Below, piece after piece: positions 121-43,581 of a DNA stretch of 56,737 nucleotides. Positions within the stretch are counted from its first letter, which is position 1. Every line of letters starts with the position of its first letter. Origin of the DNA: an uncultured Enterobacteriaceae bacterium (GTDB lineage: Bacteria > Pseudomonadota > Gammaproteobacteria > Eutrophobiales > Eutrophobiaceae); the NCBI GenBank assembly GCA_964402775.1, contig CAYOEQ010000001.1, positions 1-56,737 of the forward strand. Direction: 5' to 3'. Below the pieces are notes generated by a model that worked only from the letters and a program-made list of their open reading frames with translations, was not told the origin of the DNA and did not search any database. The translations under genes were made by a program, and so were the position numbers.

Positions 121-140
121 GGGGTCAGAGTAAAATCCCC
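121..140. repeat. REP-like element family 1, half site overlapping the cysC 3' end
   Basis: GGGGTCAGAGTAAAATCCCC. Its reverse complement GGG ATT TTA CTC TGA encodes the last four cysC codons (G-I-L-L) and the stop. Confidence 0.75.
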
Positions 141-739
141 TTGTTCTTCATATAGTTGACGATGATATCGACTTCCTCTTCCAGCGTCATCCGGTCGGTG
201 TGGAGATGGATTTCCGGACTTTCCGGTTCCTCGTAAGGATCGTCAATCCCGGTAAAGTTCCTGATCTCCCCCGCCCGGGCTTTCTTGTACAGGCCCTTGG
301 GGTCGCGCTGCTCCGCCGTCTCCAGGGAACAATCAACATGAATTTCGATAAAATCAAACCCCACATCCCGGTGCAGTTCCCGTACCCGGTCACGGTCCGC
401 CCGGTAAGGGCTGATAAAAGCGGACAGGACCAGCAGGCCCGCATCCACAAACAGTTTCGAGATCTCGCCGATGCGGCGGATATTCTCCGTCCGGTCCTCC
501 GCGGAGAAACCCAGGTTCCTGTTTATCCCCATGCGGATATTGTCACCGTCCAGCCGGTAGCTCAGTTTCCCATGTTCGTAAAGAGCCGCCTCAAGCGCGA
601 CCGCAATGGTGCTCTTGCCGCTGCCCGACAAGCCGGTAAACCAGAGTGTCGCTCCTTTCTGCCCCAGCAGACGGTTCCGGTCCGCGCGGGTGATGTCTCC
701 TTCATGCCAGTGAACATTGGTCGCTTTTTGTTTTGTCAT
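125..739 (-). CDS. cysC: adenylylsulfate (APS) kinase
   Basis: These are the last 204 codons of the over-extended ORF 125..1591, with ATG at 737-739. P-loop GLSGSGKST is present, with APS-kinase-type motifs [19 protein letters not shown] and [12 protein letters not shown]. The length is typical for CysC. Confidence 0.9.
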
Positions 740-838
740 GTTTTGTGCCCGTGTATCACAGTATTGGTTGAGCGGATCAGCGTAAAACAGTTTAACATGT
801 AGCATTATCCGGGATATATCCGGGCGGTTGTAAAGAAA

Positions 839-2020
839 GTGAATAACGACAGAAAACCGGTAGTCATCAGTTACGCAGCCAGCAAAGTGGGACGGCTGGA
901 ACAGGCGCGGTTCGAGCATGAAATCCTGGCAGACCTGGTGATCGATGCCGTGCGCTCTGCCGGCCTTGACAAGGCCGATATCGGCTCCGCCGTATTTACC
1001 GTACCGACGCCTGCCACGCGCCAGCGGGCCTTCGCCACGTTCATGACGAGCCGGCTCGGGCTGCGTTGTCACGAACAGATCGCCGAAGTCACAAACCTGG
1101 GCATTACCGGCGGCCTGGCCTTCGACCAGGCCTGCGCCGATGTCCGGAGCGGACGGGTCAAAGCTGCGCTCGCGCTGGGCATAGAGTACAACTCCGCCGT
1201 CGATGCCGCGACCATGATGGAACAGGGGATCCGGGCCGCCGGTGACGTGAATTTCCAGACACCCTTCGGCCTGACGCCTATCGCCTGGTACGCGCTGGAC
1301 GCCGACCGTTACCTGTACGAGACCGGGACCACCCGGCGCGATCTTGCCGAAATCGCAGTCAAGAACCGCCGCCACGCCATGCTCAACCCCCTGGCCCAGT
1401 TTCAGACCCCGCTGACTGTTGAAGACGTCATGGAACAACCCCCGATTGTTGAACCGCTGGGGCGTTACGACGTGCCCGCGCGCAGCGATGGAGCTATCTG
1501 CCTGGTCGTCACGTCGGAAGCGATCGCGCGCGGTCTGGACAAACCCTTTCTGCGCGTACTGGGGCGCGGGTTTGCCCACGACGGGCGCCACCAGATGGGA
1601 TCATCCCCTCATGAGATCGCCGATTTTCCCGCTGCCCGGCAGGCGACGGCAACGGCCCTGGAAGACGCCGCCGTTAACCTCGAACAAGTAGATGTCGCCG
1701 AGCTGTATGCCCCCTGCACGATCACGGAAGCGCTTGTCGTCGAAGCAATCGGGCTGGCGGAAAAAGGCAGGGGGGCGCTCGCGGCGGGCGCAGGCGAGAC
1801 AGCCATCGGCGGGCGTATCCCGGTATGCACGTCCGGCGGCTGCCTGTCCCGTGGGCATCCGCCCGGTCTGACCGCACTGTACGGTATCGCCGAACTGTTC
1901 GACCAGCTCCTGCACAGGGCGGGCAAACGCCAGGTTGCCGGCGCCGGCCTGGGACTGCACCTGTGCGAACTGGGAAATTACAACGCCGCCCTCGCCCACG
2001 TGATGGACGCAGGTAACTGA
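839..2020 (+). CDS. thiolase-fold protein (SCP-x / lipid-transfer-protein-like), apparently lacking the nucleophilic Cys
   Basis: 393 aa with a GTG start. Thiolase C-terminal pattern [21 protein letters not shown] is present. The segment that aligns by eye to the thiolase N-A-C-A-S-G nucleophile motif reads N-L-G-I-T-G (Gly codon at 1100-1102). The stop lies 2 nt before the DUF35 gene. Confidence 0.85.
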
Positions 2021-2022
2021 CC

Positions 2023-2436
2023 ATGGAAATCATCAAGGTCCGGAAATGCCTCCCCATCGTGCCGGAATACTCCGCGTTCACGGAAACGTTTCGCCAGGGA
2101 CTTGAGGCAGGAAAGTTTATGACAACTACCTGCTCCTCATGCGGCAGCATTACGTTTCCACCGAAACAACACTGCCCGGACTGCTGGTCGGCCGGGATGG
2201 AGTGGACCGAGCTGTCGGGTAACGGCATCCTGTACGCGAGAACGACCATCCATGCCGCGGCCACACAATTCCGGGACGAAGTACCGTTCAGCGTCGGCAT
2301 CGTGGACCTCACGGAAGGCGTAAGACTGGTCGCGGGTTTAATCGATGAGCCGGTACGGATCGCAAATGATGCTGAAATCCGACTCGTAATCCTTTCATAC
2401 GATGACGGGTTGTTATTCGCGGCAAAACCGGCATAA
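2023..2436 (+). CDS. DUF35 (Zn-ribbon + OB-fold) protein, partner of SCP-x-type thiolases
   Basis: 137 aa. Four-Cys ribbon CSSCGS...CPDCW is followed by an OB-fold-like C-terminus. It is tightly coupled to the upstream thiolase-fold gene. Confidence 0.85.
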   Translation: MEIIKVRKCLPIVPEYSAFTETFRQGLEAGKFMTTTCSSCGSITFPPKQHCPDCWSAGMEWTELSGNGILYARTTIHAAATQFRDEVPFSVGIVDLTEGVRLVAGLIDEPVRIANDAEIRLVILSYDDGLLFAAKPA

Positions 2437-2445
2437 CGGATATTT

Positions 2446-2460
2446 GGGGTCAGAGTAAAA
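2446..2460. repeat. REP-like element family 1, half site (GGGGTCAGAGTAAAA)
   Basis: Exact family-1 arm, 10 nt after the DUF35 stop. No matching right arm nearby. Confidence 0.7.
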
Positions 2461-2483
2461 ATACAGTCGGATTGGACGTCGTT

Positions 2484-2507
2484 GGGGACAGAATTAATTC
2501 TGTCCCC
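2484..2507. repeat. hairpin family 2 (GGGGACAGA...TCTGTCCCC)
   Basis: Perfect 24-nt palindrome GGGGACAGAATTAATTCTGTCCCC. Related copies lie at 23855-23879 and 46041-46065. Confidence 0.75.
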
Positions 2508-2531
2508 GGAAGTTACACAGCAAATATGATA

Positions 2532-2628
2532 CGGTTATCCTGCATAGGGAAAATGCGGCATTGCATAAATTTCTGCCAGGATAAGGTACTAGAATAAATT
2601 GTGTGGTCTTGTTTCTACGGGGGTCCTT
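2532..2628 (+). promoter_or_regulatory. conserved upstream leader/promoter region of TonB receptor A (copy 1 of 2)
   Basis: About 89 percent identical without indels to 5598-5694, upstream of the paralogous receptor. Contains inverted repeat TTATCCTG...CAGGATAA, conserved in both copies. Confidence 0.5.
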
Positions 2629-4992
2629 GTGGATAAAAAGTATTTATTTGTCATATCCGGTTTCCTTCTCATGCTGGTTTCCACCTTGTCCGGCGCCCAG
2701 GCGGTGCTGGAAGAGGTCGTGGTGACCGCCCAGAAACGCGAACAGTCCATCCAGGACGTGCCTATCTCAATAACGGCCATCAGCGGGGAAAATCTATCTG
2801 CAAATATTGTACAAGATGTTTTTGACCTCCGTGCAACTGTGCCCGCGCTTGAAATCAGGGGTATTGATCCACCCAGCCAGGGTGCGGCTTTTGCCATTCG
2901 TGGATTGGGGTCTTCTGTTTTTAACATGGGGTTTGAACCGACTGTCGGTACTTTTATCGATGGTGTGTATGTGAGTCGCTCCGGCCTTGTGGCGAGCAAT
3001 GACCTGCTAGACCTGGACAGGGTAGAGGTATTAAAAGGCCCGCAAGGCACCCTGTTCGGAAAAAACACCACTGGCGGCGTTGTCCATTTCATTACGAATA
3101 AACCCTCGTTCGATGAGATGGAAGGCTTCGCCGAAGTCACATATCAGGAATATGACCAGGTCAGGGTCAGAGGCGTTTTAAACATGCCTGTGCAGGACAA
3201 TTTTGCTGCTCGTATAGCTGGTTCTTATCACACCGGAGATGGCTATCTTGATAACGCGAATGGCGATGATCTCAATGATCGGGATCGTTTCACCATTCGC
3301 GGGCAGTTATTATGGGAACCGGATGCAGACTTGAGCATACGGGTCATTGCTGATTACAGTGAAGTGGATGAAAACTGTTGCTGGGCAGTAAGACATACCA
3401 ACAACCCGCTTAACCCTGTTGTGAATGCGCCTTTGGCTGCCGCTATCGGCTCCAATCTTATTGATCCTCCCGATGTGGATAATCTCAGAGTAGCCTCTAA
3501 TGGCGATCTGTTATTTGATGCCGAAGACTTTGGTATATCGGGCGAAATCAACTGGCAATTGGGTGATTTAACGCTGACGTCAATCTCTGCATACAGGGAC
3601 TACCAGGATGTGACCATCAAGGACAATGACTTTACCGGTGTGGACATGCTGATAAATACGGATACCCTGCCGGAAGTGAGCATAGTCTCGGAAGAATTCC
3701 GTATTGCCGGGGTGAGCGAGGACATTGGATTTGCCCGGTCGCTTGACTGGGTCGTCGGATTCTACTATGCCAACGAGAAGATTCAGCGTACCCGGGAATT
3801 TGTCTGGGGGTCACAAATTACCGCATTTCCATTTTTCGCTCCTGGTTTGTTCGGCAATGTCCCGGGCCGGGCTTTCTTCGATGAATTCAGCCAGGAGGTA
3901 GACACCGTAGCCGGTTTCGGCCATATCACCATCGACATCAACGATAAACTGTCACTGACTGGCGGCATCCGTTATACCAATGACGAAAAGAGCGCCAGCC
4001 ACAGGGGGCAGACGGGTATTCCGGCAGCGCCATTCAATAACCTGCCGCTTGCAGTAGTGCATGATTTCGATGTTACCAGGGAAGACAGTGAGGCAACAGG
4101 CACTGCCAGTATTCAATACCGGGTAACGGATAATGTGATGGGTTTCTTCACCTACAGCCGCGGTTATAAATCCGGTGGCATCAGCCTGAACAGGGATGCT
4201 GCCGGTAACGCACTGAGCCTGGGCGACCCGTTCCTGGGATGTCCTCCCGGAGGCGCCCCCGTGCCCGCATCTCCATTCTGCGCTTTCCCACCGGCTGATC
4301 CTACATTCGAACCCGAATTTGCCGACCATTACGAAATCGGATTCAAAAGCACATTGTTTGGCGGCCGGATGCGGTTAAATGCATCACTCTGGAAAACAGA
4401 GTTTGAAGGCCTGCAACTCCAGACATTAAGAAGGGACGGCTCTTTTCAGGTCATAAACGTAGCAGGAGCAACTTCCCAGGGTATTGAGGCAGACGTAAAT
4501 CTTGCCGCGACAGATTACCTCGATGTCTTTTTCGCCGTACAGTTTCTGGATGCGGATTTTGCTGATGAAGTTCCGGGGCTCACACCGGGATTGCCGGCGC
4601 TGGGCGGTCAGGATATACCTTTCGCTTCTGACATTACCGGAAATCTTGGCGCTAATCTCAGCTTGCCAATCGGTGATAGTGGCTGGGACTTTTTCCTGAA
4701 TGGCAACCTGTTTTTCCGGACCGAGTATTTTTCCTTCACGGAACCGGACCCTGCGCGCACCCAGGAACCATATGAATTACTGAGTCTTCGGGGTGGCGTG
4801 AATTCACCTGACGGGAAATGGGAACTCGCAGTGTGGTGCCGTAACTGCACCGATGAAAGGTATAAATACAGTGATTTCGCTATTCCTTTTGACGGTGCGA
4901 TACTGGCCTTTCCGGGAACCTCTCTGGGAACCCTCTGGTCACATTACGGCGCGCCAAGATTTGTAGGGGTAACAGGCACTTTCCGTTTCTAA
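2629..4992 (+). CDS. TonB-dependent receptor (paralog A)
   Basis: Signal peptide, then plug N-terminus LEEVVVTAQKREQSIQDVPISI and VEVLKGPQGTLFGKNTTGG. The long beta-barrel ends ...TGTFRF. I placed the start at GTG 2629 by homology with the paralog start; the ORF track begins at 2599. Confidence 0.9.
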   Translation: MDKKYLFVISGFLLMLVSTLSGAQAVLEEVVVTAQKREQSIQDVPISITAISGENLSANIVQDVFDLRATVPALEIRGIDPPSQGAAFAIRGLGSSVFNMGFEPTVGTFIDGVYVSRSGLVASNDLLDLDRVEVLKGPQGTLFGKNTTGGVVHFITNKPSFDEMEGFAEVTYQEYDQVRVRGVLNMPVQDNFAARIAGSYHTGDGYLDNANGDDLNDRDRFTIRGQLLWEPDADLSIRVIADYSEVDENCCWAVRHTNNPLNPVVNAPLAAAIGSNLIDPPDVDNLRVASNGDLLFDAEDFGISGEINWQLGDLTLTSISAYRDYQDVTIKDNDFTGVDMLINTDTLPEVSIVSEEFRIAGVSEDIGFARSLDWVVGFYYANEKIQRTREFVWGSQITAFPFFAPGLFGNVPGRAFFDEFSQEVDTVAGFGHITIDINDKLSLTGGIRYTNDEKSASHRGQTGIPAAPFNNLPLAVVHDFDVTREDSEATGTASIQYRVTDNVMGFFTYSRGYKSGGISLNRDAAGNALSLGDPFLGCPPGGAPVPASPFCAFPPADPTFEPEFADHYEIGFKSTLFGGRMRLNASLWKTEFEGLQLQTLRRDGSFQVINVAGATSQGIEADVNLAATDYLDVFFAVQFLDADFADEVPGLTPGLPALGGQDIPFASDITGNLGANLSLPIGDSGWDFFLNGNLFFRTEYFSFTEPDPARTQEPYELLSLRGGVNSPDGKWELAVWCRNCTDERYKYSDFAIPFDGAILAFPGTSLGTLWSHYGAPRFVGVTGTFRF

Positions 4993-5059
4993 TCCTGGAG
5001 GCGTTAAACATAGCTAAAGTCTATCCGCACAATTCGGTTAACAGGTGGAGTAATTTGAT

Positions 5060-5584
5060 ATGACAGACAGTTATACCTATTCGCGGAGTTTATTTGGTTA
5101 TATATTGATACCCCTGATACTTTTATTTTTTTCCCAGGCAAGCCCGGGTGATGACGCTCGTGCAATACTTTCACCGGAGGAAAAACACAACAAGCTGGTA
5201 ATTGCAAAGGCAATTGTAGATGTCCTTAACAAGGGTCAATTTGAAATAGTCGATGAGTTATTCGCAGATGAACTGGTCGAACATGATCCGTATCAGACTA
5301 AAACGAAGTCCCCTAAAGAGTCCTTCATAGCCGCAGTAAAAACTTTTCGCTCTGCCTTCCCCGATGGCATTATGACTATCGAGAAACAAATTGCCGAGGG
5401 TGACTTTGTATCAACGAGGTGGAGTAAAACCGGCACTCACAAGGGTGAGTTTATGGGGATCCCTCCCACAAACCGCAAAATAACATTTACCGGAATATTT
5501 TTTGACAGGCTTGAAAATGGCAAGATCGTTGAGACTTGGGCAAACTACGACCTTTTCGGATTGTTACAACAAATTAGCGAGTAG
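5060..5584 (+). CDS. secreted SnoaL-like / ester-cyclase-type NTF2-fold protein
   Basis: 174 aa, with SD GGTGGAG upstream. Signal peptide ...LLFFSQASPG. SnoaL/ester-cyclase pattern FRSAFPDG...IAEGDFVSTRW...GTHKGEFMGIPPTNRKITFTGIFFDRLENGKIVETWANYD. Confidence 0.85.
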   Translation: MTDSYTYSRSLFGYILIPLILLFFSQASPGDDARAILSPEEKHNKLVIAKAIVDVLNKGQFEIVDELFADELVEHDPYQTKTKSPKESFIAAVKTFRSAFPDGIMTIEKQIAEGDFVSTRWSKTGTHKGEFMGIPPTNRKITFTGIFFDRLENGKIVETWANYDLFGLLQQISE

Positions 5585-5597
5585 CCCGGATTTCATG

Positions 5598-5694
5598 CGG
5601 TTATCCTGCATAGCGAAAGTACGGCATTGCATAAATTTTTGCTAGGATAAGGTACTAGAATAGATAATGTAGTCTTGTCTCTACGGGGGTCGTT
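5598..5694 (+). promoter_or_regulatory. conserved upstream leader/promoter region of TonB receptor B (copy 2 of 2)
   Basis: Paralogous to 2532-2628 (about 11 mismatches in about 100 nt, no indels), with the same TTATCCTG...(T)AGGATAA inverted repeat. Confidence 0.5.
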
Positions 5695-8091
5695 GTGGAT
5701 AAAAAGTATCTGTTACCTGTCATACCCGGTTTCCTTCTCATGCTGGTTTCCTCCTTGTCCGGCGCCCAGGCGGTGCTGGAAGAGGTCGTGGTGACCGCCC
5801 AGAAACGCGAACAGTCGATCCAGGACGTGCCTATTTCAGTCAGTGCGCTCAGCAATGAAGACCTGGCGGCTAACCTCGTGACCGATGTCTTTGATTTACG
5901 TCAGGCCGTACCGGCGCTGGAAGTACGAACGGTTGACCCACCTTCCCAGGGTGCGTCATTCTCGTTGCGCGGGCTCGGGACGTCAGTGTTTAACATGGGT
6001 TTCGAACCGACTGTGGCCACATTTATCGACGGAGTCTACCGTAGCCGCAGTGGCCTGACCACCGTGTTTGACCTGTTTGATCTTGACCGGGTAGAAGTAC
6101 TCAAAGGCCCCCAAGGCACCCTGTTCGGCAAGAACTCAACGGCCGGCGTCGTGCATTTCATTACCAAAAAGCCGGAAATGGGTGAGTTTGACATGATGGC
6201 CCAGGCCACCTATGAGGAGCATGATCGCTTCCGTTTCAACGGCATGGTGAACGTCCCCGTGAGTGAGACACTGGCCGCGCGTCTGTCCGCTTCAGTCGGC
6301 ACCGGTGACGGCTGGATCGATAACCTCTCAACCGGTAAGGACGAACGCGACCTGGACCGCTGGACCGTCAAAGGCCAGTTGTTGTGGGAACCCGATGAGA
6401 ACCTGAGTGTGCGTCTGTCCGCAGATTACAGCGAAGTGGATGAGGTCTGCTGCCAGCCACTGGATTTCATTAGCGACCCGTTTGTGCCGCTCGTGAATCT
6501 GCCCCTGGCGCAAGCCAACGGCGCCACTGAGAAACACCCGGCGGACATTGACGACCTTGAATCGGCGTCCAACTTTGGATCAACCTGGGACGCTGAAGAC
6601 CGCGGTTTTTCCGCGGAGGTCAACTGGGATATCGGAAATGTGACACTGACGTCAATCACGGCTTACCGGGATTATGAGGATATCAACATCAAGGATAACG
6701 ATTTCGGTGGCGTAGATATCCTGCGTACACAACAAAACATGCCGGAGATCAGTCTGTTTTCGGAGGAGTTCCGCATCCGTGGCCTGCTTGAGGGTATTCC
6801 CTTTGGGCAATCTCTCGATTGGACACTGGGCATCTACTACGCGAACGAAGATATTGAACGCTCCAATGAATTCATCTGGGCATCACAGATCACGTCGCTT
6901 CCCCAGTTCCCGCCTTTTCTTCCTCCTGGCTTCTTTGGCGGCCAACCCGGACGCGCCTTTTTGGCGAGCTTCAAGCACGAAGACGAGACTTTTGCAATAT
7001 TCGCACACGGAACCCTGGATGTGACTGACAAGCTAGCCATCACCGGTGGCTTCCGCTGGACGCGTGATGAGAAGAAAGCAAGCGCGGTCAATGATCATCC
7101 AGCCAACAATGTCGGCTTTCTCGGTCTGGGGTTTCCTCCTTTCAACTTCAATTCGTTCCCGTTGCCGGTCGTCCATGACTATACGGCAGAGACGGAGAAC
7201 GAGGAACCCACCGGGACTGCGAGTATCCAGTATAACTGGACCGACAACATTATGACTTTCTTTACTTACAGCCACGGCTTCAAGGCTGGAGGCATAAGTC
7301 TCACAAGGGATGCGGCCGGACCGATGATTGCGCTGGGGTCACCCGCAGGATGCCCACCCGGCGGCACTCCGGTTGGCCCGGTGTGCAATTTTGCCGTTGC
7401 CGGAGATCCGACCTTCCGTCCGGAATTTGCAGACCACTACGAGATTGGCGTCAAGTCAACCCTGCTCAATGACCGCTTGCGCCTGAATATAGCGGCATGG
7501 CGTACCGATTTCGAGGATTTGCAGGTCCAGACACTACAGCCGGCTGGTAACTTCGCAGTCGATAATATTGCCGGCGCCCGCTCCCAGGGGGTGGAGGCCG
7601 AGGGTAACCTGCTGGTTACCGATGGGTTGCGGATCAATGCCTCACTACAGTGGCTGGATGCGACCTTTGATAAGGGGATAGGACCGTTGACTCCGGGTCC
7701 GGGATTTATCCCGTTGGGAGGCGAGAACCTGCCGTTCTCCTCGGAATGGACCGGTACTGTGGGCGCCCTCTTTGAACAACCTCTTGCCGATACCGGCTGG
7801 GAATTGTTTCTTGGCGGCAACGTGTTCTTCCGCAGTGAGCAATATAACTTTACCGAACCTCGCTACGACCGCAAATTAAGTGGCTACGAACTCCTTAACC
7901 TGTATGGTGGACTCCGCTCCTCAGACGGCAAGTGGGAGGTGAAGGGCTGGTGTCGCAACTGCGCCGATAAGCGTTATACCTGGAGCCAGTTCACAATCCC
8001 GTTTGATGGAACAATCCTGGGCCATTCAAGCCTCTGGTCGCACCCTGCGCCGCCTCGTTTCATAGGGGGCACAGTCACCCTCCGCTACTGA
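5695..8091 (+). CDS. TonB-dependent receptor (paralog B)
   Basis: 798 aa with a GTG start. It has the same N-terminal plug motif as paralog A, VEVLKGPQGTLFGKNSTAG, and a C-terminal ...TVTLRY. Confidence 0.9.
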   Translation: MDKKYLLPVIPGFLLMLVSSLSGAQAVLEEVVVTAQKREQSIQDVPISVSALSNEDLAANLVTDVFDLRQAVPALEVRTVDPPSQGASFSLRGLGTSVFNMGFEPTVATFIDGVYRSRSGLTTVFDLFDLDRVEVLKGPQGTLFGKNSTAGVVHFITKKPEMGEFDMMAQATYEEHDRFRFNGMVNVPVSETLAARLSASVGTGDGWIDNLSTGKDERDLDRWTVKGQLLWEPDENLSVRLSADYSEVDEVCCQPLDFISDPFVPLVNLPLAQANGATEKHPADIDDLESASNFGSTWDAEDRGFSAEVNWDIGNVTLTSITAYRDYEDINIKDNDFGGVDILRTQQNMPEISLFSEEFRIRGLLEGIPFGQSLDWTLGIYYANEDIERSNEFIWASQITSLPQFPPFLPPGFFGGQPGRAFLASFKHEDETFAIFAHGTLDVTDKLAITGGFRWTRDEKKASAVNDHPANNVGFLGLGFPPFNFNSFPLPVVHDYTAETENEEPTGTASIQYNWTDNIMTFFTYSHGFKAGGISLTRDAAGPMIALGSPAGCPPGGTPVGPVCNFAVAGDPTFRPEFADHYEIGVKSTLLNDRLRLNIAAWRTDFEDLQVQTLQPAGNFAVDNIAGARSQGVEAEGNLLVTDGLRINASLQWLDATFDKGIGPLTPGPGFIPLGGENLPFSSEWTGTVGALFEQPLADTGWELFLGGNVFFRSEQYNFTEPRYDRKLSGYELLNLYGGLRSSDGKWEVKGWCRNCADKRYTWSQFTIPFDGTILGHSSLWSHPAPPRFIGGTVTLRY

Positions 8092-8110
8092 AGACAGTTC
8101 CTCCTGCGGA

Positions 8111-10852
8111 GTGTTGCTCGTGAATCAAGCCCCACAGACAATCCGTCTGTGGGGCTTTTTTGTGCGCGTAACGGTTACCGGCTTCCTGCTGATGATATCG
8201 GTTACGGATCTGTTACAAGCCAGGGGTACAACGGCCTGGGAAACCACTACTGCATTCACCCGGGAACGACTGCATGCCATGGATGCGGCTATCAACCTGC
8301 GCGGAGCTCCTGAACAAGCCTACGAAAAATACATGGCCGTTTTCTCACCATCGGTGCGTGTACGCGGACTGCTGCCGGGTGAGACGACTGACTACGCCGG
8401 GGTCAGGGAATTCTACCGGGGCCTGTTCGGTACATTCGAGGACAGCATACTGGTCAGCGATGAGTTGATTGTTGCGGGACCGATGGCAGCGCAGCGCTAT
8501 CACTCTCTCGGCTACATGACAGGCACCTTCGACGGTGTAACGATGGACCGTAAACTGATTGCGATCCGCGGCCAGACTTTTTTCCGTTTTGACGCAAACG
8601 GGTTGATTGCAGAACGCTGGTCAAACCACGACCACGCCTACAGACTTTCACAGATCAAGGGTACAGCTGCCATGGAAGAAGGCCGGCAACTTGCCGCGCT
8701 GCTCAATGGCGCAGGTTTAACCGAGCAGGCTGTCTATGACCGTCTTGATGATATGACGGCGGCCTTCAACCTTATCCATAACCCGGCAGAGCGTGAAAAG
8801 CGCTTCCTGTCGTTCTTCGACAAGGACGTCAGGGCACATGGTATCAGCCCCGGTCTACGCGGGCTGAGCGAACTCGCAGATTATTACCGGGCGCGCTGGA
8901 AGGCGTTTCCAGACCTGGTCATGAACCTTGAGGCAAAACTCTCCGCCTGGTCCATGGGCGCAGTGCGCTGGCGGGCAACTGGTTCGTCACGGGATCGTTT
9001 CGCCGGTATCGAACCGACCCATGCGCCCGCAGTGCTGACCGGTGAAGCGATAATGCACTTTAATCAAGCCGGTAAAGTAACAGAGATCTGGATCAATGAC
9101 TCAACACCGCCCCAAAAGCCCGGGGATACCGCAACAAGACATGCGTATTTCGGCGATCTTCACGTGCATACCCGCCTGTCCGTGGACGCTTTCGTATTCG
9201 GCGCGCTGGGCACCCCCGACGATGCCTACCGCTACGCACGAGGCGAACCGATAAGGCACGCGAGTGGTAAATTGATCCGCATCAGGACGCCGCTGGACTT
9301 TATCGCGGTGACGGATCATGCCGAATACCTGGGCGTGCTTGTGGCAATGGGAGATCCCGCCAATCCCCTATCCGGACTGCAGCTTGCTGAAGAACTCTAC
9401 AGCAAGGACGAGTCAATGCTGGCGCGGGGGATTGAAAAGCTGAAGGCCAGTATTTTCGGCGGTAAGCCGCTTCCGGAACTGGTCGGGGAAAGTACCATAC
9501 ACTCGTTATGGGAAAAAACCGCCGCGGTCGCGGACCGGAATTACGAACCCGGTACATTTACAACCTTTATCGCCTTCGAGTGGTCTGCGACACCAGAAGG
9601 CGCCAACCTGCACCGTAACGTCATTTTTCAAGGCGGCGCCGAAGCAGTTCCACCCCATCCGGTGTCGTCATTCGACACAATAAAGCCGGAAGACCTGTGG
9701 GAGTACATGGAACAGGCGCGGCGCAACGGTTCGGACGTGATTGCGATCCCGCATAATTCCAACCTGAGTGACGGCCGCATGTTCCCGGTCCTTGATTCCG
9801 GCGGACAACCCATCGACCGGCTTTATGCCGAAATGCGCATCCGCAACGAACCTGTTGTTGAAGTTGTTCAGATCAAGGGTACATCGGAGACGCATCCGGT
9901 ATTGTCGGTTACGGATGAGTGGGCCGACTTCGAACTCCTCGGCGAACTGATGGGAGGCAGCGGCAGGCAAGGTACGGTAACAGGCAGTTATGTCCGGGAT
10001 GCCTACAAAAAAGGGCTGCAGATTGAGCAGACAGCCGGTGTTAATCCATACCTGTTCGGCGTTGTCGGCAGCAGCGATTCACACAACGCCAGCGTGCCGG
10101 TCGAAGAAGACAACTATACCGGGAAGATTGGCGTTGCCGACGCCACCCCTGAGGACAGGCGCAATGGCGGCTCGATAACCAGCCGGAACATCAGGTACGG
10201 TGCGGCAGGTCTTGCCGGCGTCTGGGCCGAGGAGAATACCCGGGAGTCAATATTCGCCGCATTGAAACGCAGGGAAACCTTTGCCACCAGCGGCCCGCGT
10301 ATCCGCGTACAAATGTTCGCGGGCTGGTCTTTTGACAAAATGCTGCATACGCGTACGGACATGCTTCGCACGGCCTATGCCGACGGCGTCCCCATGGGTG
10401 GATACCTGTATCCGACTACAGAAAAATTACAGGTTCCGCGCTTTCTACTTCGGGCTGTACGAGACCCTGACAGTGCCCCTTTGCAGCGCCTGCAGGTAAT
10501 CAAGGGATGGCTGGCAGATGGAGACACCCACGAGAAAGTTTTCGACGTAGCGTGTTCAGACGGCCTCGTACCAGACCCGGTCAACCACCGTTGCCCGGAT
10601 AACGGGGCCATCGTTAATTTGAGTGATTGCAGTATCTCATCGAATAAAGGAGATGCGGCACTCTCTGTTGTCTGGGCCGATCCTGAATTCGACGTCACCG
10701 CACCCGCATTTTATTACGCTCGCGTACTCGAAAACCCCACGTGCCGCTGGAGCACCTGGGACGCTTTGCGCATGGGCTGGGAACTACCGGAAGAAGTGCC
10801 TGCCGTAATCCAGGAGCGCGCCTGGACCTCACCTGTCTGGTATCAGCCATAA
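8111..10852 (+). CDS. exported fusion protein: two SnoaL-like NTF2 domains + DUF3604 (PHP-like metal-dependent hydrolase fold)
   Basis: 913 aa with a hydrophobic N-terminal signal/anchor. Two ester-cyclase-like repeats occupy about aa 45-182 (...IAERWSNHD) and about aa 205-330 (...VTEIWINDS). From about nt 9140 come DUF3604-type motifs DLHVHT, AVTDHAEY, FEWS, IPHNSNLSDG, GSSDSHNA, RRETFATSGPRI and ERAWTSPVWY. An alternative start is GTG 8120, which has a better SD spacing. Confidence 0.85.
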   Translation: MLLVNQAPQTIRLWGFFVRVTVTGFLLMISVTDLLQARGTTAWETTTAFTRERLHAMDAAINLRGAPEQAYEKYMAVFSPSVRVRGLLPGETTDYAGVREFYRGLFGTFEDSILVSDELIVAGPMAAQRYHSLGYMTGTFDGVTMDRKLIAIRGQTFFRFDANGLIAERWSNHDHAYRLSQIKGTAAMEEGRQLAALLNGAGLTEQAVYDRLDDMTAAFNLIHNPAEREKRFLSFFDKDVRAHGISPGLRGLSELADYYRARWKAFPDLVMNLEAKLSAWSMGAVRWRATGSSRDRFAGIEPTHAPAVLTGEAIMHFNQAGKVTEIWINDSTPPQKPGDTATRHAYFGDLHVHTRLSVDAFVFGALGTPDDAYRYARGEPIRHASGKLIRIRTPLDFIAVTDHAEYLGVLVAMGDPANPLSGLQLAEELYSKDESMLARGIEKLKASIFGGKPLPELVGESTIHSLWEKTAAVADRNYEPGTFTTFIAFEWSATPEGANLHRNVIFQGGAEAVPPHPVSSFDTIKPEDLWEYMEQARRNGSDVIAIPHNSNLSDGRMFPVLDSGGQPIDRLYAEMRIRNEPVVEVVQIKGTSETHPVLSVTDEWADFELLGELMGGSGRQGTVTGSYVRDAYKKGLQIEQTAGVNPYLFGVVGSSDSHNASVPVEEDNYTGKIGVADATPEDRRNGGSITSRNIRYGAAGLAGVWAEENTRESIFAALKRRETFATSGPRIRVQMFAGWSFDKMLHTRTDMLRTAYADGVPMGGYLYPTTEKLQVPRFLLRAVRDPDSAPLQRLQVIKGWLADGDTHEKVFDVACSDGLVPDPVNHRCPDNGAIVNLSDCSISSNKGDAALSVVWADPEFDVTAPAFYYARVLENPTCRWSTWDALRMGWELPEEVPAVIQERAWTSPVWYQP

Positions 10853-10878
10853 CCGGCTTGTTCCGTCCATAATAGCTG

Positions 10879-12222
10879 TCAGGACGGAGACTCAGGCACC
10901 AGGTTTTTCCTGGCCAGCCAACGCCGGATGACGCCGTGCCGGTGCTTGTTGATGGGATAGTTGTAGAGTATGAGGGCGCCGGCAAGACCTATGATCCCCG
11001 GCAGGAACAGCCCGACAAAGGCAAGGCCCTGCAGCGCCTCGGCGTCATTCACTCCCGCAGGCTGAAATCCCAGGACTCCCAGCAAAGGCAGCGCAATTCC
11101 TACACCGCCTGCAAACGCTACCTTTACGATAAAATTGTAAACGGCCATGTATATTGCCGCATCATCGCTGCCCCCCTTCATCATGCCGTACTCGATCGTG
11201 TCCGCCACCAGCGCCGGCGGCATCACCCAGATGACCGAGATGATCGGTCCATGCACCAGGGCAACCAGCAACAATTGCGAGAAATCACCGGGGGCCACCA
11301 GCAGGTACAGGGGCTGGACCGCCAGGTAGCCGAACCCGCCCCAGACCAGGGCCCGGTGCCGGCCAAAACGGTTGCCGAACCTGACCCATAACGGCAGGCA
11401 GAGAATGCCGATGACGTACTGTATCAATACGAACTTCAGGAATGCCGAACGAGGCATCTCCAGGATATACTCGAACGTGAATATCAGCGAGGCATTCATC
11501 ACGCTGCCGCCGAGCCAGAGGAAAAATATGCCGATGATCAGGCGCAGGTACGGCTTGTTCCCTGACAGGAGTTTCAACGTGGACATCAGCCCGTGCCTGC
11601 CGGTCTCGACAAACGGGGCTTTCGGCGTAACAGCGGTCGCCATGAACACGGCAAGCGGGATCAAAACCATCAAGAACGCGACATAAACCCACAATATGTC
11701 CCGCAACGCCGGGTTCTCTTCCCTCAGGAACAGGACCGGAAGCAGCGTTGCCAGGATTACCCCAATCATCGTCCCGGTTTCACGGTAGCCGTTGATACGG
11801 GTCCGCGCCGCATAATCCCGGGACAGTTCCGCGCCCCAGGACAAATAGGGGATCTGTACGGTAGTCCAGGCGATATAGAACACCAGCGCCACGACAAACA
11901 GGTAGGTTTTACTCACGCTGACAGGCGGGCTGAGAAACAGGTACAGGGTGACCATCAGCAGGGGCATACCGATGATGATCCAGGGTTTGCGGCGCCCCCA
12001 TCGGCCGCGGGTCTGGTCGGAGAAAAAACCGATCAGGGGGTCCGTAATCGCATCCCAGGCGCGTGCAATGAAGAATATGCCGCCTACCGCGGCCAGTTCC
12101 AGGCCGAGTTCCGCTGCGTAAAACGGCGGCACATAAATGATTAACGGCATTCCCAGCATGGCCAGTGGAACGGCAGGCAACATGTAGGCTATCAGGGAAA
12201 TTCTATCGGTGGCTGATCTCAC
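10879..12222 (-). CDS. MFS transporter, glycoside-pentoside-hexuronide (GPH) cation symporter family
   Basis: 447 aa and multi-TM. GPH-type motif DPLIGFFSDQTRGRWGRRKPW. The GTG start overlaps the upstream stop (GTGA). Confidence 0.85.
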   Translation of the reverse strand: MRSATDRISLIAYMLPAVPLAMLGMPLIIYVPPFYAAELGLELAAVGGIFFIARAWDAITDPLIGFFSDQTRGRWGRRKPWIIIGMPLLMVTLYLFLSPPVSVSKTYLFVVALVFYIAWTTVQIPYLSWGAELSRDYAARTRINGYRETGTMIGVILATLLPVLFLREENPALRDILWVYVAFLMVLIPLAVFMATAVTPKAPFVETGRHGLMSTLKLLSGNKPYLRLIIGIFFLWLGGSVMNASLIFTFEYILEMPRSAFLKFVLIQYVIGILCLPLWVRFGNRFGRHRALVWGGFGYLAVQPLYLLVAPGDFSQLLLVALVHGPIISVIWVMPPALVADTIEYGMMKGGSDDAAIYMAVYNFIVKVAFAGGVGIALPLLGVLGFQPAGVNDAEALQGLAFVGLFLPGIIGLAGALILYNYPINKHRHGVIRRWLARKNLVPESPS

Positions 12223-13718
12223 GTTATCACTCCGTTACTGTTTTCATTCATTCCCGGGGGATTTTCATGCCGCGGCCAATAGGGTTGGATAAATTTCCTG
12301 TAGGGAATGCCTGCAAAGTCAAAGTTGAGCGCGCCGGGGCTTGTTACGTAAATTACATCCCCGGCCAGGGGGGCAAACCCCGCATGGAAGTGCTGGCTTG
12401 ACTTGACGACGACCAGCTTCATCTCCAGCAGGTCGATGCCCAGAACAGTAAATATTTGCGGATGTAATGTCTGACAGCGGTGTTCACTGATAACCAAATT
12501 GACGTTTGCAAGGTCTGCATCCAGCAGCGATACCCAGGCCAGACTTCCGACAGGTTGCCGTCCGCCGCCCGTGTCAGGCTGCGAATAATCCTCCACCAAC
12601 GCACGAACCGCGATTTTCAGTGCAACGGGTTTGCCGGAGACGTTTCCTGTCCTGCCGCCCAACTCGAGGTCCAGCGTTGCGCCCTTGCCTGCACTCCTGC
12701 ATCCGGCAAGCGATTCAGGGTCGCAATAAACACCCGATACCACGTTATCGAATTTCCTGGCCAGGATACGCTCCAGGATGAAAGTGGCATCAGCCGGCGC
12801 CCCACCACCCGGGTTATCCGCAGTGTCCGCCAGCACGATTGGACGCCGGTCCGATGCTTCGGCAAGGTCCAACGCCTCATCAACACCTGGATATTCAGGA
12901 TGCGTCTCATGGCGCATCATCCAGATTTCCGTGCCGAGTTCTACCGCGGTACGGGCGGCCAATGAACTGTCGGCATTCGCATAAACAAGCATCTTGGCGC
13001 CGTTATGCACACTGTCGCCCCAAGGGAAACCGTGACAGAACGATATGGAAATTATCCCGTCTGTTTCTTCCAGGTCACGCAATTTTTCAACAAAACGGCT
13101 CATCGGTTGTTCAGTGGTTTTCCAGGTGCTTATCATCCGGCAATCATGGACACTGCCTGCCGGTTTTAGTTTCCCTTCTGCAATGTCCGTGCAAAGGTCA
13201 AACAGCCTGTCGCCGCACTCCATGATATCCGTATGCGGATACTCCTTGTAGGAAATGAGCAAGTCCGAATTTTCAAGCATCGTCTGAGAAAGCAGGCAAT
13301 GCAGGTCCAGTTCAGCGCCTATCACCGTGCCGGCACCAACTAACTGCCTGATTTCCTTTATCAAATCTCCTTCACAGTCATCACATTCCGTTGCGATCAT
13401 CGCGCCGTGCAGTTGCAACAGCACGACATCTACGGGCATCGCCCGCTTAAGATCTGAAAGTATTTCCCGTTTGAACGCCTCGTATACCGGCATCTCGACA
13501 GGACCCCCCGGCAGGGCCACAGCACCCAGGCTTTCGACTACATCATGTCCCGCCGCGCTTGCCGATTGCCGCCAGCGGGCCAGTACCGGACCAAACAGCT
13601 TGTCCATGCTGCTGGCGTTGCCATGCCATAGACCGAACTGCCTGAATTCATCCATCCCGGTTGGAATGGGTGAGAAAGTATTGGTTTCGGTCAACAGCAG
13701 GGCAATAAAGTATTTCAT
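12219..13718 (-). CDS. M81-family metallopeptidase (MlrC / microcystinase-C-like)
   Basis: 499 aa. N-terminal MlrC-type motif LLTETNTFSP and overall MlrC N+C domain length. 9-nt gap to the upstream gene. Confidence 0.8.
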   Translation of the reverse strand: MKYFIALLLTETNTFSPIPTGMDEFRQFGLWHGNASSMDKLFGPVLARWRQSASAAGHDVVESLGAVALPGGPVEMPVYEAFKREILSDLKRAMPVDVVLLQLHGAMIATECDDCEGDLIKEIRQLVGAGTVIGAELDLHCLLSQTMLENSDLLISYKEYPHTDIMECGDRLFDLCTDIAEGKLKPAGSVHDCRMISTWKTTEQPMSRFVEKLRDLEETDGIISISFCHGFPWGDSVHNGAKMLVYANADSSLAARTAVELGTEIWMMRHETHPEYPGVDEALDLAEASDRRPIVLADTADNPGGGAPADATFILERILARKFDNVVSGVYCDPESLAGCRSAGKGATLDLELGGRTGNVSGKPVALKIAVRALVEDYSQPDTGGGRQPVGSLAWVSLLDADLANVNLVISEHRCQTLHPQIFTVLGIDLLEMKLVVVKSSQHFHAGFAPLAGDVIYVTSPGALNFDFAGIPYRKFIQPYWPRHENPPGMNENSNGVIT

Positions 13719-13727
13719 GGTTAAGCC

Positions 13728-15387: not shown

Positions 15388-15870
15388 TTACGGCGTATTA
15401 TTATTCCCCATATCCAGTATCACCTTCCATGCCCCATCGGCCTGGCGCTCCCATAACAAAATGTACTTGCCTTGCCGCGGGGCTGCCTGGTTCTCAACAT
15501 CTCCACCCTTGAGAACAAAGTTTGCGACAAAGTTGCCGCGGGTCAGGGCCCAATCGCCCTCCGTTATGACGGAATCGACGGTTACGTCCAGCTGCTCGAT
15601 ATCGAAAGTGCCGTGGACGGTCTGCGCGAACCCGCGCAGCGCCTGCTTGCCTTCCAGCGCCGGTAAGGTGTTGTGCATGCCGACCGCGTCATCGGCGAAG
15701 ACCCCCAGCCAGCCCTCGGTATCGCCTGTTTTATAAGGCTCGATGTATTCATTGAGCACCAGTTGCTCGAAATCCGGCGGGGATGCTGCCTGCCGGTCCT
15801 GCCTGGAACAAGCGTTTGCGAACAATACCAGCGCAACCAGGAGTATATGGAGATAGTTATTCATGGGCAT
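15388..15870 (-). CDS. exported NTF2-fold protein (DUF4440/SnoaL-like; possible lipoprotein)
   Basis: 160 aa. The signal peptide ends ...LVLFANAC, a non-canonical lipobox. NTF2-like pattern with a C-terminal ...WKVILDMGN. Confidence 0.7.
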   Translation of the reverse strand: MPMNNYLHILLVALVLFANACSRQDRQAASPPDFEQLVLNEYIEPYKTGDTEGWLGVFADDAVGMHNTLPALEGKQALRGFAQTVHGTFDIEQLDVTVDSVITEGDWALTRGNFVANFVLKGGDVENQAAPRQGKYILLWERQADGAWKVILDMGNNNTP

Positions 15871-26262: not shown

Positions 26263-26308
26263 TATTGTTCTCCTGGCAGGGTAATATTGTCTTGATATTA
26301 TCGCTGTA

Positions 26309-26337
26309 ATTTTACACCAATATTTGCCCGTTGTGAA
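26309..26337 (-). promoter_or_regulatory. candidate sigma70 promoter for TonB receptor C
   Basis: The minus strand reads TTCACA-N17-TAAAAT, about 45 nt upstream of the ATG. Confidence 0.4.
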
Positions 26338-26366
26338 CGTAGTTTTTAGGACGCCGCTTGAATTAT

Positions 26367-26918
26367 TCACGTCCGCACCACGCGCCCGGTAAGCGCATCC
26401 CTGATTGCGCTGGGCCTGTCATCTCCGCCGACATTGCCTGGAACGTAACAGTCCACGTCCCGGCCAAAATAAGCCTGGACACGCCGCCGGCTCCGCGCCG
26501 GCCGGCAACCGGACGGGTTGGCGCTGGTTGAGACGAGCGCACCGGCTGCGTCACACAATCTTTGCACGACAGGATGCGCCGATACCCGTACCGCCAGGGT
26601 ATCGTGCCGGCCCGTCAGCCAGCGCGGCGTAAAAGGGTGCGCCGGCACCAGCCAGGTAACCGGGCCGGGCCATGAACCGGTAATCTCTTCCAGCCTGGGC
26701 ACCCGGGAAAAATCCACCAGGTCGGATAACTGTTCGACGCTTGAGGCGGCAACGATCAGGCCCTTGTCGGCGGGTCGCCGCTTCAACCGCAGCAGTTCAG
26801 CCACTGCGTTTTCATCCCAGGGATCACAACCCAGGCCCATTACCGCCTCAGTGGGATAGGCGATGACGCCGCCGTCTTGCAGGACGCTTAGCGCATGATG
26901 GATTTCCCAGCTTTTCAA
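26367..26918 (-). CDS. tsaC: L-threonylcarbamoyladenylate synthase, single-domain YrdC type
   Basis: 183 aa. YrdC/Sua5 motifs GGVIAYPTEAVMGLGCDP, LKRRPADKGLIV and LVSTSANPSG. Confidence 0.85.
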   Translation of the reverse strand: MKSWEIHHALSVLQDGGVIAYPTEAVMGLGCDPWDENAVAELLRLKRRPADKGLIVAASSVEQLSDLVDFSRVPRLEEITGSWPGPVTWLVPAHPFTPRWLTGRHDTLAVRVSAHPVVQRLCDAAGALVSTSANPSGCRPARSRRRVQAYFGRDVDCYVPGNVGGDDRPSAIRDALTGRVVRT

Positions 26919-38525: not shown

Positions 38526-38531
38526 ACGGGT

Positions 38532-39911: not shown

Positions 39912-39931
39912 TTTGATTCACCTTGCGTAGT

Positions 39932-41554: not shown

Positions 41555-41562
41555 GACTGTCG

Positions 41563-43530: not shown

Positions 43531-43581
43531 CTCTGGTAGACTCCGCGTTGTGTTGCAACAATACAAATCCGCGTGATTTTA

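Follow-up and report, generated by a model that had tools for sequence, protein, structure and literature searches.

In contig CAYOEQ010000001.1 of an uncultured Enterobacteriaceae bacterium (assembly GCA_964402775.1; positions 1 to 56,737, all 56,737 nucleotides (nt) of which are referred to here as the window), four neighboring genes encode two TonB-dependent receptors (TBDR1 and TBDR2), a small exported protein of the SnoaL family, and a large exported protein in which a tandem pair of SnoaL domains is fused to a DUF3604 domain. The conserved core of this region is a TonB-dependent receptor gene followed directly by a gene for an exported SnoaL-family protein. The receptor-SnoaL system is real and, in the literature that could be searched, undescribed, and it recurs across many uncultured bacteria within one conserved nutrient-breakdown island. 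We interpret the region as a receptor-centered utilization locus with a new kind of periplasmic SnoaL/NTF2 partner, enzyme-like in its tandem form, to which DUF3604 would have been added as a plug-in, metal-dependent ester hydrolase. Taken as a whole, this interpretation has in our judgment about an even chance of being correct.

Pfam searches and a check of the open reading frames (ORFs) placed the genes and the two parts of the fusion as follows (aa, amino acids).

2629-4992, + strand: TBDR1, 787 aa; Plug domain (PF07715, E 2.5e-16) and barrel (PF00593, E 6e-34).
5060-5584, + strand: exported single-domain SnoaL protein, 174 aa; PF07366, E 2.7e-37; probable cleavage between SQA and SPG.
5695-8091, + strand: TBDR2, 798 aa; Plug domain (E 2.3e-18) and barrel (E 6e-39).
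8120-10852, + strand: fusion gene (tandem SnoaL-DUF3604), about 910 aa; two SnoaL stretches and PF12228.
8120-9136, + strand: N-terminal part of the fusion; signal peptide (about 34 aa, cleavage between LQA and RGT) and tandem SnoaL (residues ~40-330; PF07366, PF12680).
9137-10852, + strand: C-terminal part of the fusion, the DUF3604 domain (residues ~340-910); predicted PHP-like fold, C-terminal beta-sandwich and four near-invariant Cys residues.

Residue numbers of the fusion protein count from the start at 8120, which is backed by a GGAG sequence and an ATG or GTG codon kept in five lineages. The initial annotation of the window had described four co-directional genes separated by gaps of 67, 110 and 19 nt, with which our analysis agrees, the third gap being 28 nt if the fusion starts at 8120. 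Its left border at position 2446 had to be moved, because TBDR1 begins about 180 nt later, at a GTG codon at 2629 that was set by analogy with the TBDR2 N-terminus (MDKKYL...; the mechanical ORF begins at 2599). Bases 2446-2628 are thus outside the TBDR1 coding sequence and are intergenic and regulatory. The 174-aa protein and the fusion scored 127.9 and 80.1 bits, respectively, against PF07366 (cut-off 28.4), which places both in the SnoaL-like polyketide cyclase family, and PF12228 matched the fusion over its full length (profile positions 3-591 of 591, 723.5 bits, E 2.4e-217). The earlier picture of a SnoaL protein with a signal peptide lying between paralogous receptors was also borne out, TBDR1 and TBDR2 being 58% identical across 806 columns.

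When the N-terminal half of the fusion alone served as the query, a compact family emerged whose members are exported tandem-SnoaL proteins that stand alone and measure about 320-350 aa (79 clusters; in a set of 1.84 billion proteins, about 30 representatives reached E <=1e-30); the 328-aa member encoded in locus L087 is 47% identical to the fusion half. The loci of this family were gathered by context look-ups and a metagenome scan. In 14 of the approximately 20 loci with enough upstream DNA, a co-directional receptor gene lies immediately upstream of the tandem-SnoaL gene (L087, L088, L090, L091, L094, L096, L100, L103-L108 and L111), and one further separate locus also has a receptor gene directly upstream. 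The binomial probability of this pairing is about 1e-12 to 1e-21, or 6e-8 once the loci are collapsed to lineages, values that overstate independence because the loci are nearly all from metagenome-assembled genomes (MAGs) or metagenomes and many are phylogenetically related. The pairing strongly backs the idea, put forward in the initial annotation, of a receptor-linked periplasmic module.

The receptors that adjoin tandem SnoaL are 39-87% identical to TBDR1 or TBDR2 across the greater part of the sequence, the partial receptor of L111 being 33-35% identical, whereas other receptors are 24-30% identical. TBDR2 is 51-58% identical to the receptors preceding tandem SnoaL in L087, L090, L091, L094 and L096, about 39% identical to SnoaL-linked receptors from freshwater and 24-30% identical to the remainder. 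Orthologues of TBDR1, 87% identical in L094 and 80% in L091, precede a stand-alone tandem SnoaL, whereas TBDR1 itself precedes the single-domain protein, which implies that the two forms of the partner are interchangeable. The single-domain protein shows this pairing in another genome as well, where its exported homologues P0130 and P0131 (65% identical; loci L086 and L089) come immediately behind a receptor. The G+C content of the TBDR1-SnoaL unit, measured over 2001-6000 of the window, is about 0.50, as compared with about 0.57 for the whole window and 0.56-0.57 for the TBDR2-fusion unit; this low value, together with the 80-87% identity of TBDR1 to the receptors of L091 and L094, suggests that the first unit may have been acquired more recently.

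Both receptors carry Plug and 22-strand barrel domains that score well over their cut-offs, a signal peptide, a TonB box and an aromatic C-terminal residue (TFRF in TBDR1, which ends in F, and TLRY in TBDR2). The signal of TBDR1 ends in SGAQA, and the sequence that follows, VLEEVVVTA, contains the TonB-box-like EEVVVTA; the corresponding box of BtuB is DTLVVTA. We reject an assignment to the siderophore, haem or B12 receptors, since no curated NCBIfam cut-off for these subfamilies was reached: the best score was 140-142 bits against TIGR01783 (cut-off 223.5), and the equivalog models were far below theirs. The TonB-hemin model gave 90-123 bits against a cut-off of 317. Matches of the receptors to PDB entries were mostly limited to the N-terminal plug region.

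Export was judged by a home-made heuristic of hydrophobicity and residues -3/-1 rather than by SignalP. By this measure, all four module proteins have an N-terminal hydrophobic segment followed by a site of the SQA/S, AQA/V or LQA/R type; the cytoplasmic controls scored lower, yet the thiolase control (2.16) came near the fusion (2.34), so that the separation is not sharp. The same heuristic found N-terminal hydrophobic segments in 53 of 62 tandem-SnoaL and 65 of 75 DUF3604 family members. Lipobox-like signals were present in only 8 of the 62 tandem-SnoaL partners, type I secretion system (T1SS) features were absent, and the signals are instead of the Sec type I-like class, which points to the periplasm rather than to a surface lipoprotein or a secreted hemophore. 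This bears on the proposal in the initial annotation that the SnoaL protein captures a ligand at the surface or in the medium, as in SusC/SusD or HasR/HasA. The order of a receptor gene and a small partner gene does superficially resemble susC-susD and hasR-hasA, but the receptors scored 36-53 bits against the SusC/RagA model TIGR04056 (cut-off 368), and the partner is an NTF2-fold protein with a type I-like signal, not a SusD-like lipoprotein. It bears an N-terminal signal, and a Pfam scan of the island found no ABC or T1SS genes, so that a HasR/HasA arrangement is not matched either. The partner is, moreover, fused to a 570-residue periplasmic-type enzyme in one case and encoded beside a cytochrome c and a flavoprotein with a twin-arginine (Tat) signal in others. 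We consider surface capture very unlikely and place the SnoaL partner in the periplasm.

The nearest solved structures of the single-domain protein are 'ester cyclases' and IdmH (8ysb, 6hnn and 8kaa). An AlphaFold model of the tandem form, built on a 62-row family alignment (pLDDT 93.7, pTM 0.88), consists of two NTF2-like cones; in fold it comes closest to Lsd19 and MonBI-MonBII, which are tandem NTF2 enzymes (E ~1e-13, TM 0.5-0.64 over ~300 columns), and then to SnoaL2, AclR and ketosteroid isomerase. In domain 1 the residues Y71, Y99, Y127-H128, R150-G151, W167-x-N169-H170-D171-H172 and R175 are invariant, whereas domain 2 has an invariant P264-D265, and the rich set of invariant polar residues is found in domain 1 only. 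The cluster of Y127 and H128, R150, and N169 H170 D171 H172 points to catalysis or to binding of a polar group. Because of this invariant Tyr/His/Arg/Asn-His-Asp-His cluster, the tandem SnoaL protein has, as judged from residue conservation, the look of an enzyme that most likely converts its substrate rather than merely carrying it. The hydrophobic substrate and the role of binder or isomerase that the initial annotation assigned to SnoaL are guesses.

An alternative interpretation is that the SnoaL proteins are non-catalytic carriers, which would pass a poorly soluble ligand from the receptor to an inner-membrane MFS_2 transporter or to periplasmic enzymes and would leave DUF3604 as the sole enzyme of the pair. 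MlaC, an NTF2-like phospholipid carrier, would be the model. Such a role is suggested by the strict adjacency of receptor and SnoaL genes, by the exchange of single and tandem partners behind orthologous receptors (TBDR1 versus L094 and L091), by the presence of three different exported NTF2-like proteins in the island, and by the NTF2 cone itself, a classic pocket for small ligands; the C-terminal beta-sandwich of DUF3604 also faintly resembles the lipid-binding RhoGDI and UNC119 (Foldseek E 0.02-0.05). However, the domain-1 cluster (Y71, Y99, Y127, H128, R150, N169, H170, D171, H172 and R175) is more typical of a catalytic or polar site, the nearest folds are enzymes, and we know of no MFS transporter that uses a periplasmic binding protein. 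We regard the carrier role as rather unlikely, and prefer an enzymatic one for the tandem SnoaL protein.

The 174-aa protein is a clear profile member of the SnoaL/ester-cyclase family PF07366 (SnoaL, SnoaL2, AclR, IdmH, ChaU), but in contrast to those enzymes it is exported and paired with a receptor, no polyketide cluster is nearby, and the tandem form has a WSNHDH motif of its own. No polyketide synthase (PKS) genes were found in the island context by a Pfam scan of the window proteins; this context and the export of the proteins argue against ring closure of an aromatic polyketide. Lsd19 and MonBI-MonBII, which are polyether epoxide hydrolases/cyclases, also have two NTF2 cones in one unit; they are 12-16% identical to the tandem SnoaL protein, however, and are cytoplasmic, biosynthetic proteins of Streptomyces, whereas the latter is exported and would be catabolic, so that the likeness is one of fold.

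The initial annotation had described the four genes as one module. They are not self-contained but form the leading part of a conserved island that is far larger, the other genes of which are listed below (assignments by Pfam).

839-2436, + strand: thiolase-like protein (839-2020) and DUF35/ChsH2-type OB-fold protein (2023-2436).
10879-12222, - strand: MFS_2 (GPH-type) inner-membrane transporter; PF13347, E 8e-81; convergent with the fusion gene, 26-nt gap.
12219-15311, - strand: MlrC/M81 peptidase-like protein (12219-13718) and GMC oxidoreductase (13728-15311).
15388-15870, - strand: SnoaL_2/DUF4440 NTF2-like protein, exported and probably a lipoprotein (also by the signal heuristic).
15880-17409 and 17406-18419, - strand: AMP-binding coenzyme A (CoA) ligase and PALP, a pyridoxal phosphate (PLP) enzyme.
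18449-19546 and 19547-20593, - strand: DUF2817 protein and AraC-family regulator.
20727-22208, + strand: FAD_binding_4/BBE flavoprotein; twin-arginine motif LRRRDVL; mechanical ORF from 20511.

The gene order is kept in relatives that carry the fusion. It is the same in L085 as in the window; L003 and L004 have in addition a VapBC pair between the SnoaL and TBDR2 genes; L001 has a shorter form with one receptor and the fusion; and the contig of L002 begins just upstream of the fusion, with only the end of one receptor gene visible. Because of the insertion between them and the one-receptor form, the window is seen to hold two tandemly duplicated, separable units, TBDR1-SnoaL and TBDR2-fusion. 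VapB/PIN (VapC) pairs occur right after a SnoaL or tandem-SnoaL gene (6767-7356 in L003 and L004, 7827-8416 in L094), and the VapBC insertions in relatives sit at the junction between two receptor units. The flanks of the fusion relatives are constant, with the APS (adenosine phosphosulfate) kinase and thiolase-DUF35 genes on one side and MFS_2, MlrC (absent from L001), GMC, DUF4440, AMP-binding, PALP, DUF2817, AraC and FAD_binding_4 genes on the other. The mechanical ORF at 125-1591 (- strand, 488 aa) is too long and runs into the thiolase gene; only its C-terminal ~150 aa are an APS kinase domain, homologues have 206 aa, and an APS kinase gene stands divergently beside the thiolase-DUF35 genes in the relatives with a visible flank (L001, L003, L004 and L085).

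Beyond these relatives, the receptor-SnoaL pair is accompanied by the same gene families in re-ordered loci from marine and freshwater samples, which share up to eleven families with the window (ten in L087) and also include OCD, TauD and a di-haem cytochrome c. The MFS_2 gene recurs in L087, L090, L091, L096, L098, L113 and the further separate tandem-SnoaL locus; the GMC oxidoreductase, which has no signal at its N-terminus and is cytoplasmic, in L087, L099, L103, L107 and L113; the DUF4440 protein in L090, L091, L096, L103, L106 and L107; and the set of CoA ligase, PALP, DUF2817 and AraC genes in L001-L003, L087, L091, L099, L103, L106, L107 and L113. The thiolase-DUF35 pair is also found near tandem SnoaL in L091, L098, L099, L103, L105-L107 and L110, and L091 and L103-L107 share it in place of some of the families shared with L087. 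Homologues of the FAD/BBE protein are encoded in L087 (5664-7142, - strand), L090 (1125-2594, - strand), L103, L106 and L107. A twin-arginine signal was present in every lineage examined (the window, L087 with SRRGFL, L090 with TRRKFV and LAGC, and L103), and several homologues also bear a lipobox. On the basis of this signal, the window gene likely starts at about 20727 and encodes a periplasmic enzyme, so that a dehydrogenase or oxidase of the flavoprotein type would take part in the periplasmic chemistry. As in a utilization locus, genes for a receptor, a transporter of the inner membrane, a regulator and catabolic enzymes are co-localized and recur together in several lineages, and three different exported NTF2-like proteins are encoded in one island. 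The window contains two further, unrelated TonB-dependent receptors, at 24004-26370 (- strand) and at 43708-45987, the latter within the stretch 37308-45987; one of them adjoins genes for a Rieske oxygenase, a class-III aminotransferase, an AMP-binding ligase and an FAD oxidoreductase, a neighborhood that looks like another receptor-linked catabolic locus.

Three candidate regulatory elements were found in the module.

2524-2648, + strand: leader upstream of TBDR1, with the direct repeat TGCATA-N15-TGCATA at 2541-2567 followed by a TAGAAT box resembling a -10 sequence.
5590-5714, + strand: copy of the leader upstream of TBDR2, with the direct repeat at 5607-5633.
8127-8157, + strand: 13-bp GC-rich hairpin and T-run, a terminator-like match 7 nt into the fusion gene.

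The two 125-nt leaders are 87% identical, above the level of the adjoining coding DNA, and a 30-nt motif taken from them occurs at only these two sites of the window against an expectation of 0. The leader is conserved in L001, L003 and L085. An exact search for the repeat over all loci matched close relatives alone; degenerate versions seen by eye before SnoaL-linked receptors in distant loci are weak evidence. The two copies imply two separately promoted but co-regulated units. Direct repeats 21 bp apart and next to a weak -35 sequence suit an AraC-type activator, and we infer that they are a candidate operator for the AraC-family protein of the island. Five lineages that are about 26% divergent in protein have the same DNA sequence in both arms of the hairpin, whereas the loop varies; in its 84-nt context the folding energy is -38.4 kcal/mol (z = -5.6), and the minimum free energy structure also pairs around the start codon. 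The hairpin may be an attenuator or a translational control element that lowers expression of the fusion gene relative to TBDR2. When positions 2300-11000 were compared with Rfam (E up to 1), no family matched, and the leader and the hairpin are accordingly not known RNAs. Downstream of the DUF35 gene and ahead of the TBDR1 leader there is an inverted repeat, GGGGACAGAA-TTAA-TTCTGTCCCC at 2484-2507 (+ strand), which is probably a terminator or a hairpin of the repetitive extragenic palindromic (REP) type closing the thiolase-DUF35 unit; L085 has GGGGTCAGAGCAAATGCTCTGACCCC at this site, with both arms changed.

In the initial annotation, DUF3604 was proposed as the hydrolase of the four-gene module. 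The domain is not, however, the heart of the system: within the island the domain occurs in two lineages only, and it is absent from most versions, including the close relative L094, which has a 71%-identical module of receptor and tandem SnoaL; DUF3604 is therefore an accessory. Among 1,104 clusters of homologous DUF3604 proteins in public data, six (74-99% identical) carry the SnoaL half, and they reduce to one representative at the 50% level. The second island lineage is that of L087 and L088. The gene order of L090 and L096 is MFS_2 > DUF4440 > cytochrome c > DUF2817 < TBDR > tandem SnoaL > OCD, and that of L087 and L088 is the same except that the cytochrome c gene runs on into a DUF3604 domain. 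The di-haem cytochrome c of the fused form (L087, 10001-12370) is 52% identical to the stand-alone form (L090, 4625-5269), and the window lineage lacks it; the window DUF4440 protein is 47% identical to the L087 protein encoded 4 nt upstream of the cytochrome c-DUF3604 fusion. The DUF3604 domains of the two fusions are mutual closest relatives (62-64% identical). That sister domains were joined to two different periplasmic proteins of one island is an argument for a periplasmic role of DUF3604 in concert with the island.

One could object that the fusion in the window is a neutral accident, in which a DUF3604 gene came to lie downstream of the gene for an exported protein and the DUF3604 signal peptide was lost, the domain being uncoupled from SnoaL and the receptor and the synteny reflecting kinship. 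The fusion is indeed confined to one narrow lineage (the six clusters with their single 50%-level representative), L094 does without DUF3604, and no SnoaL gene was found at any of 80 other DUF3604 loci. Against an accident, a sister domain has been joined independently to another periplasmic protein of the island, and the fusion ORF is intact, all family-invariant residues of both halves being kept in at least five assemblies that are 26% divergent. We give an accident little chance and favor a functional coupling of DUF3604 to the island.

The domain itself is predicted with confidence. An AlphaFold model based on a 75-sequence alignment has pLDDT >90 for nearly all of residues 340-910. Foldseek against the PDB returned the PHP-like phosphoesterase 3e38 (E 1.7e-7), the PHP domain of RNase AM (7ug9, E 1.4e-3) and 3o0f (E 0.05), and PHP proteins were the only convincing matches (probabilities 0.5-1.0), so that the model has the distorted (beta/alpha)7 barrel of that superfamily. 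In the 75 sequences H348, H350, D356, D399-H400, E487, H545 and D653-x-H655 are invariant and H592 nearly so; all of the family-invariant residues are kept in the window protein, and the motif residues, with the exception of D356, follow or close successive predicted beta-strands. The order HxH, DH, E, H, H, DxH of these putative ligands of a tri-metal site is that of the canonical PHP metal ligands. The exported SnoaL-DUF3604 protein with PHP-like motifs that had been described at the outset was thus recovered, and DUF3604 looks like a PHP-fold protein and a predicted multi-metal hydrolase. It shares the order of putative ligand motifs, apart from the extra D356, with BVU_3505 (3e38), RNase AM/TrpH (7ug9) and BAD_1165 (3o0f), but it is about twice their size, with large insertions and an extra beta-sandwich, and it is exported and has conserved Cys residues. 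All PHP enzymes known to us are cytoplasmic. The four near-invariant Cys residues and the frequent lipoboxes of the 75 sequences fit an extracytoplasmic enzyme. In the searchable literature no function was found for DUF3604 (PF12228/IPR022028), as had been stated earlier; the sole mention was in a table of a Chlamydia transposon, that genus also carrying the domain. NCBIfam holds no DUF3604 model. Of the three findings that the initial annotation had named as refuting its module, none was made, since the gene order is kept in relatives, the signals are plausible by the heuristic and no characterized role of DUF3604 came to light in the searchable literature.

In a scan of one genome per species, we found at least 581 DUF3604 loci, in Proteobacteria, Acidobacteriota and Myxococcota. 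Neighborhood counts refer to the best 80 of these, the flanks of which were examined by clustering and hidden Markov model (HMM) searches; the 80 are mainly from Pseudomonadales (so labelled in their records), Alphaproteobacteria, Acidobacteriota and Myxococcota. Of the co-occurrence with receptors and SnoaL genes that the initial annotation had suggested surveying, the first part was found and the second was not. A receptor identified by the TBDR profile lies within 10 kb in 18 of the 80 loci and is adjacent in 7, against 2.1 expected (P = 0.006, uncorrected for kinship); a Pfam scan of the neighbors left unclassified by the profiles added two receptors to the 7. These receptors of other lineages are 24-30% identical to those of the window. 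By HMM search SnoaL was present at 0 of the 80 loci. DUF3604 is thus a widespread exported protein that usually keeps other company, and it is linked to SnoaL in a lineage-specific way. A Pfam census of the unclassified immediate neighbors showed no dominant partner (FMO-like proteins four times, other families at most three times). PF00884 sulfatases were within 10 kb in 9 of the 80 loci (for example, L034, L068, L032 and L017), and the nearest stand-alone DUF3604 protein (P0009, 59% identical) is encoded between a PF00884 arylsulfatase and an SdsA-type alkylsulfatase (L115-L117, 8087-13675). The neighbors of P0009 are the best pointer to anionic esters as substrates.

Several points weigh against our interpretation, in addition to the relatedness of the loci and the use of a heuristic for export. 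The TM-scores between DUF3604 and PHP proteins reach a modest 0.45 (relative to the target), an effect of the large insertions; neither a single sequence nor the 75-sequence profile of DUF3604 had a sequence match in the PDB; and Pfam at E up to 10 returned PF12228 alone, with no PHP model. The sulfatase link is modest, and to our knowledge sulfatase activity has never been reported for the PHP fold. Because most versions of the island lack it, DUF3604 cannot be essential to the pathway, and a fusion to cytochrome c is not expected of a simple hydrolase. Lastly, the commonest partners of DUF3604 were a Rotamase_2 peptidyl-prolyl isomerase (PPIase; 36 of the 80 loci) and a HupE_UreJ_2 membrane protein (35 of the 80), usually in the order DUF3604 > PPIase (~287 aa) > HupE_UreJ_2 (~333 aa), as in L019 (10001-14164) and L052 (10001-13640), and these partners hint at metal handling rather than catabolism. 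The mature N-terminus of the HupE_UreJ_2 protein appears to start with His.

From this operon, one could envision that DUF3604 is part of a system for acquiring metals or metallophores, in which a receptor brings in a metal chelate, the periplasmic hydrolase frees the metal (much as the esterase PfeE serves the receptor PfeA) and a HupE-type permease takes it up, and that its presence in the island is secondary. The operon is found in about 35 of the 80 loci, receptors are the next commonest immediate neighbors (the 7 noted above), and an opine-dehydrogenase-like gene is present in several versions of the island. On the other hand, no HupE or PPIase gene is near the fusion in the window or its relatives; catabolic enzymes, an AraC regulator and MFS_2 make up most of the island; the DUF3604-adjacent receptors elsewhere are unrelated (24-30%) to the SnoaL-linked ones; and no metal-regulator boxes were seen, although none were looked for. 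We think a metal role improbable for the protein in the window.

We return to the receptor-centered utilization locus, for which the following model can be drawn. The region would supply the front end, in the outer membrane and the periplasm, of a catabolic island that is conserved and linked to AraC. The receptor would import an organic substrate; the SnoaL partner would receive it in the periplasm and convert it by isomerization or by ring opening or closure, as Lsd19 or SnoaL do; and the DUF4440 lipoprotein, the Tat-exported FAD/BBE flavoprotein and, elsewhere, the di-haem cytochrome c would also act in the periplasm. The product would then enter through MFS_2 and be degraded by the CoA ligase, thiolase/DUF35, GMC oxidoreductase, DUF2817 and PLP enzymes. 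DUF3604 would remove an anionic ester group (phosphate or sulfate) or cleave another ester bond of the imported compound, and in the fusion this hydrolysis would be tethered to the SnoaL step of the partner of the second receptor. The substrate is probably not a carbohydrate; a sterol or bile-salt sulfate, an opine or tauropine, or an ornithine-lipid can be named as speculation.

The logic of receptor, transporter, enzymes and regulator is known, whereas the NTF2 partner, the island and the role of DUF3604 are undescribed in the literature searched, in which we found no report of a receptor-SnoaL/NTF2 pairing, of SnoaL in the periplasm or of a function for DUF2817. The island resembles the CUT (carbohydrate utilization) loci of Xanthomonas and the loci of Proteobacteria akin to polysaccharide utilization loci (PULs) in combining a receptor, an inner-membrane transporter (here MFS_2), degradative enzymes and an AraC-type regulator, with receptors heading the units; it differs in having no glycoside hydrolases and in its periplasmic components, which are NTF2/SnoaL proteins, the BBE flavoprotein, cytochrome c and DUF3604. 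In FusA/FusC and PfeA/PfeE, an enzyme encoded beside the receptor processes the imported ligand in the periplasm, as would be the case here. FusA/FusC imports ferredoxin and cleaves it with an M16 protease, PfeA/PfeE imports enterobactin and uses an esterase, and both serve iron uptake, whereas the folds here are NTF2 and PHP-like and the island looks catabolic. The Tat-signalled FAD/BBE protein and the di-haem cytochrome c recall p-cresol methylhydroxylase, a periplasmic flavocytochrome c made of a VAO-family flavoprotein and a cytochrome c, but the cytochrome is absent from the window and the flavoprotein and cytochrome genes are not adjacent, so that the likeness is by analogy.

Heterotrophs of marine and fresh waters contain few proteins that are more abundant than TonB-dependent receptors, most of which have no known substrate or partner. 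We tentatively suggest, as a possibility we would not yet favor, that a receptor and an exported tandem SnoaL protein form a dedicated, hitherto unrecognized two-component unit for import and conversion in marine and freshwater Proteobacteria, and that DUF3604 represents a novel group of exported esterases with a PHP fold, phosphatase- or sulfatase-like, which can be added to such units through domain fusion. If this is true, the receptor/NTF2 pair, conserved, co-evolving and equipped with an operator of its own, would extend the known set of partners (SusD-like lipoproteins, hemophores and periplasmic esterases and proteases) by a new periplasmic type, and it would define a tractable regulon from which the substrate could be found. 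The locus would also be the first functional handle on DUF3604, with its more than 1,000 homologous clusters, for the chemistry of which the double fusion, the PPIase/HupE operon and the sulfatase neighborhoods provide concrete hypotheses.

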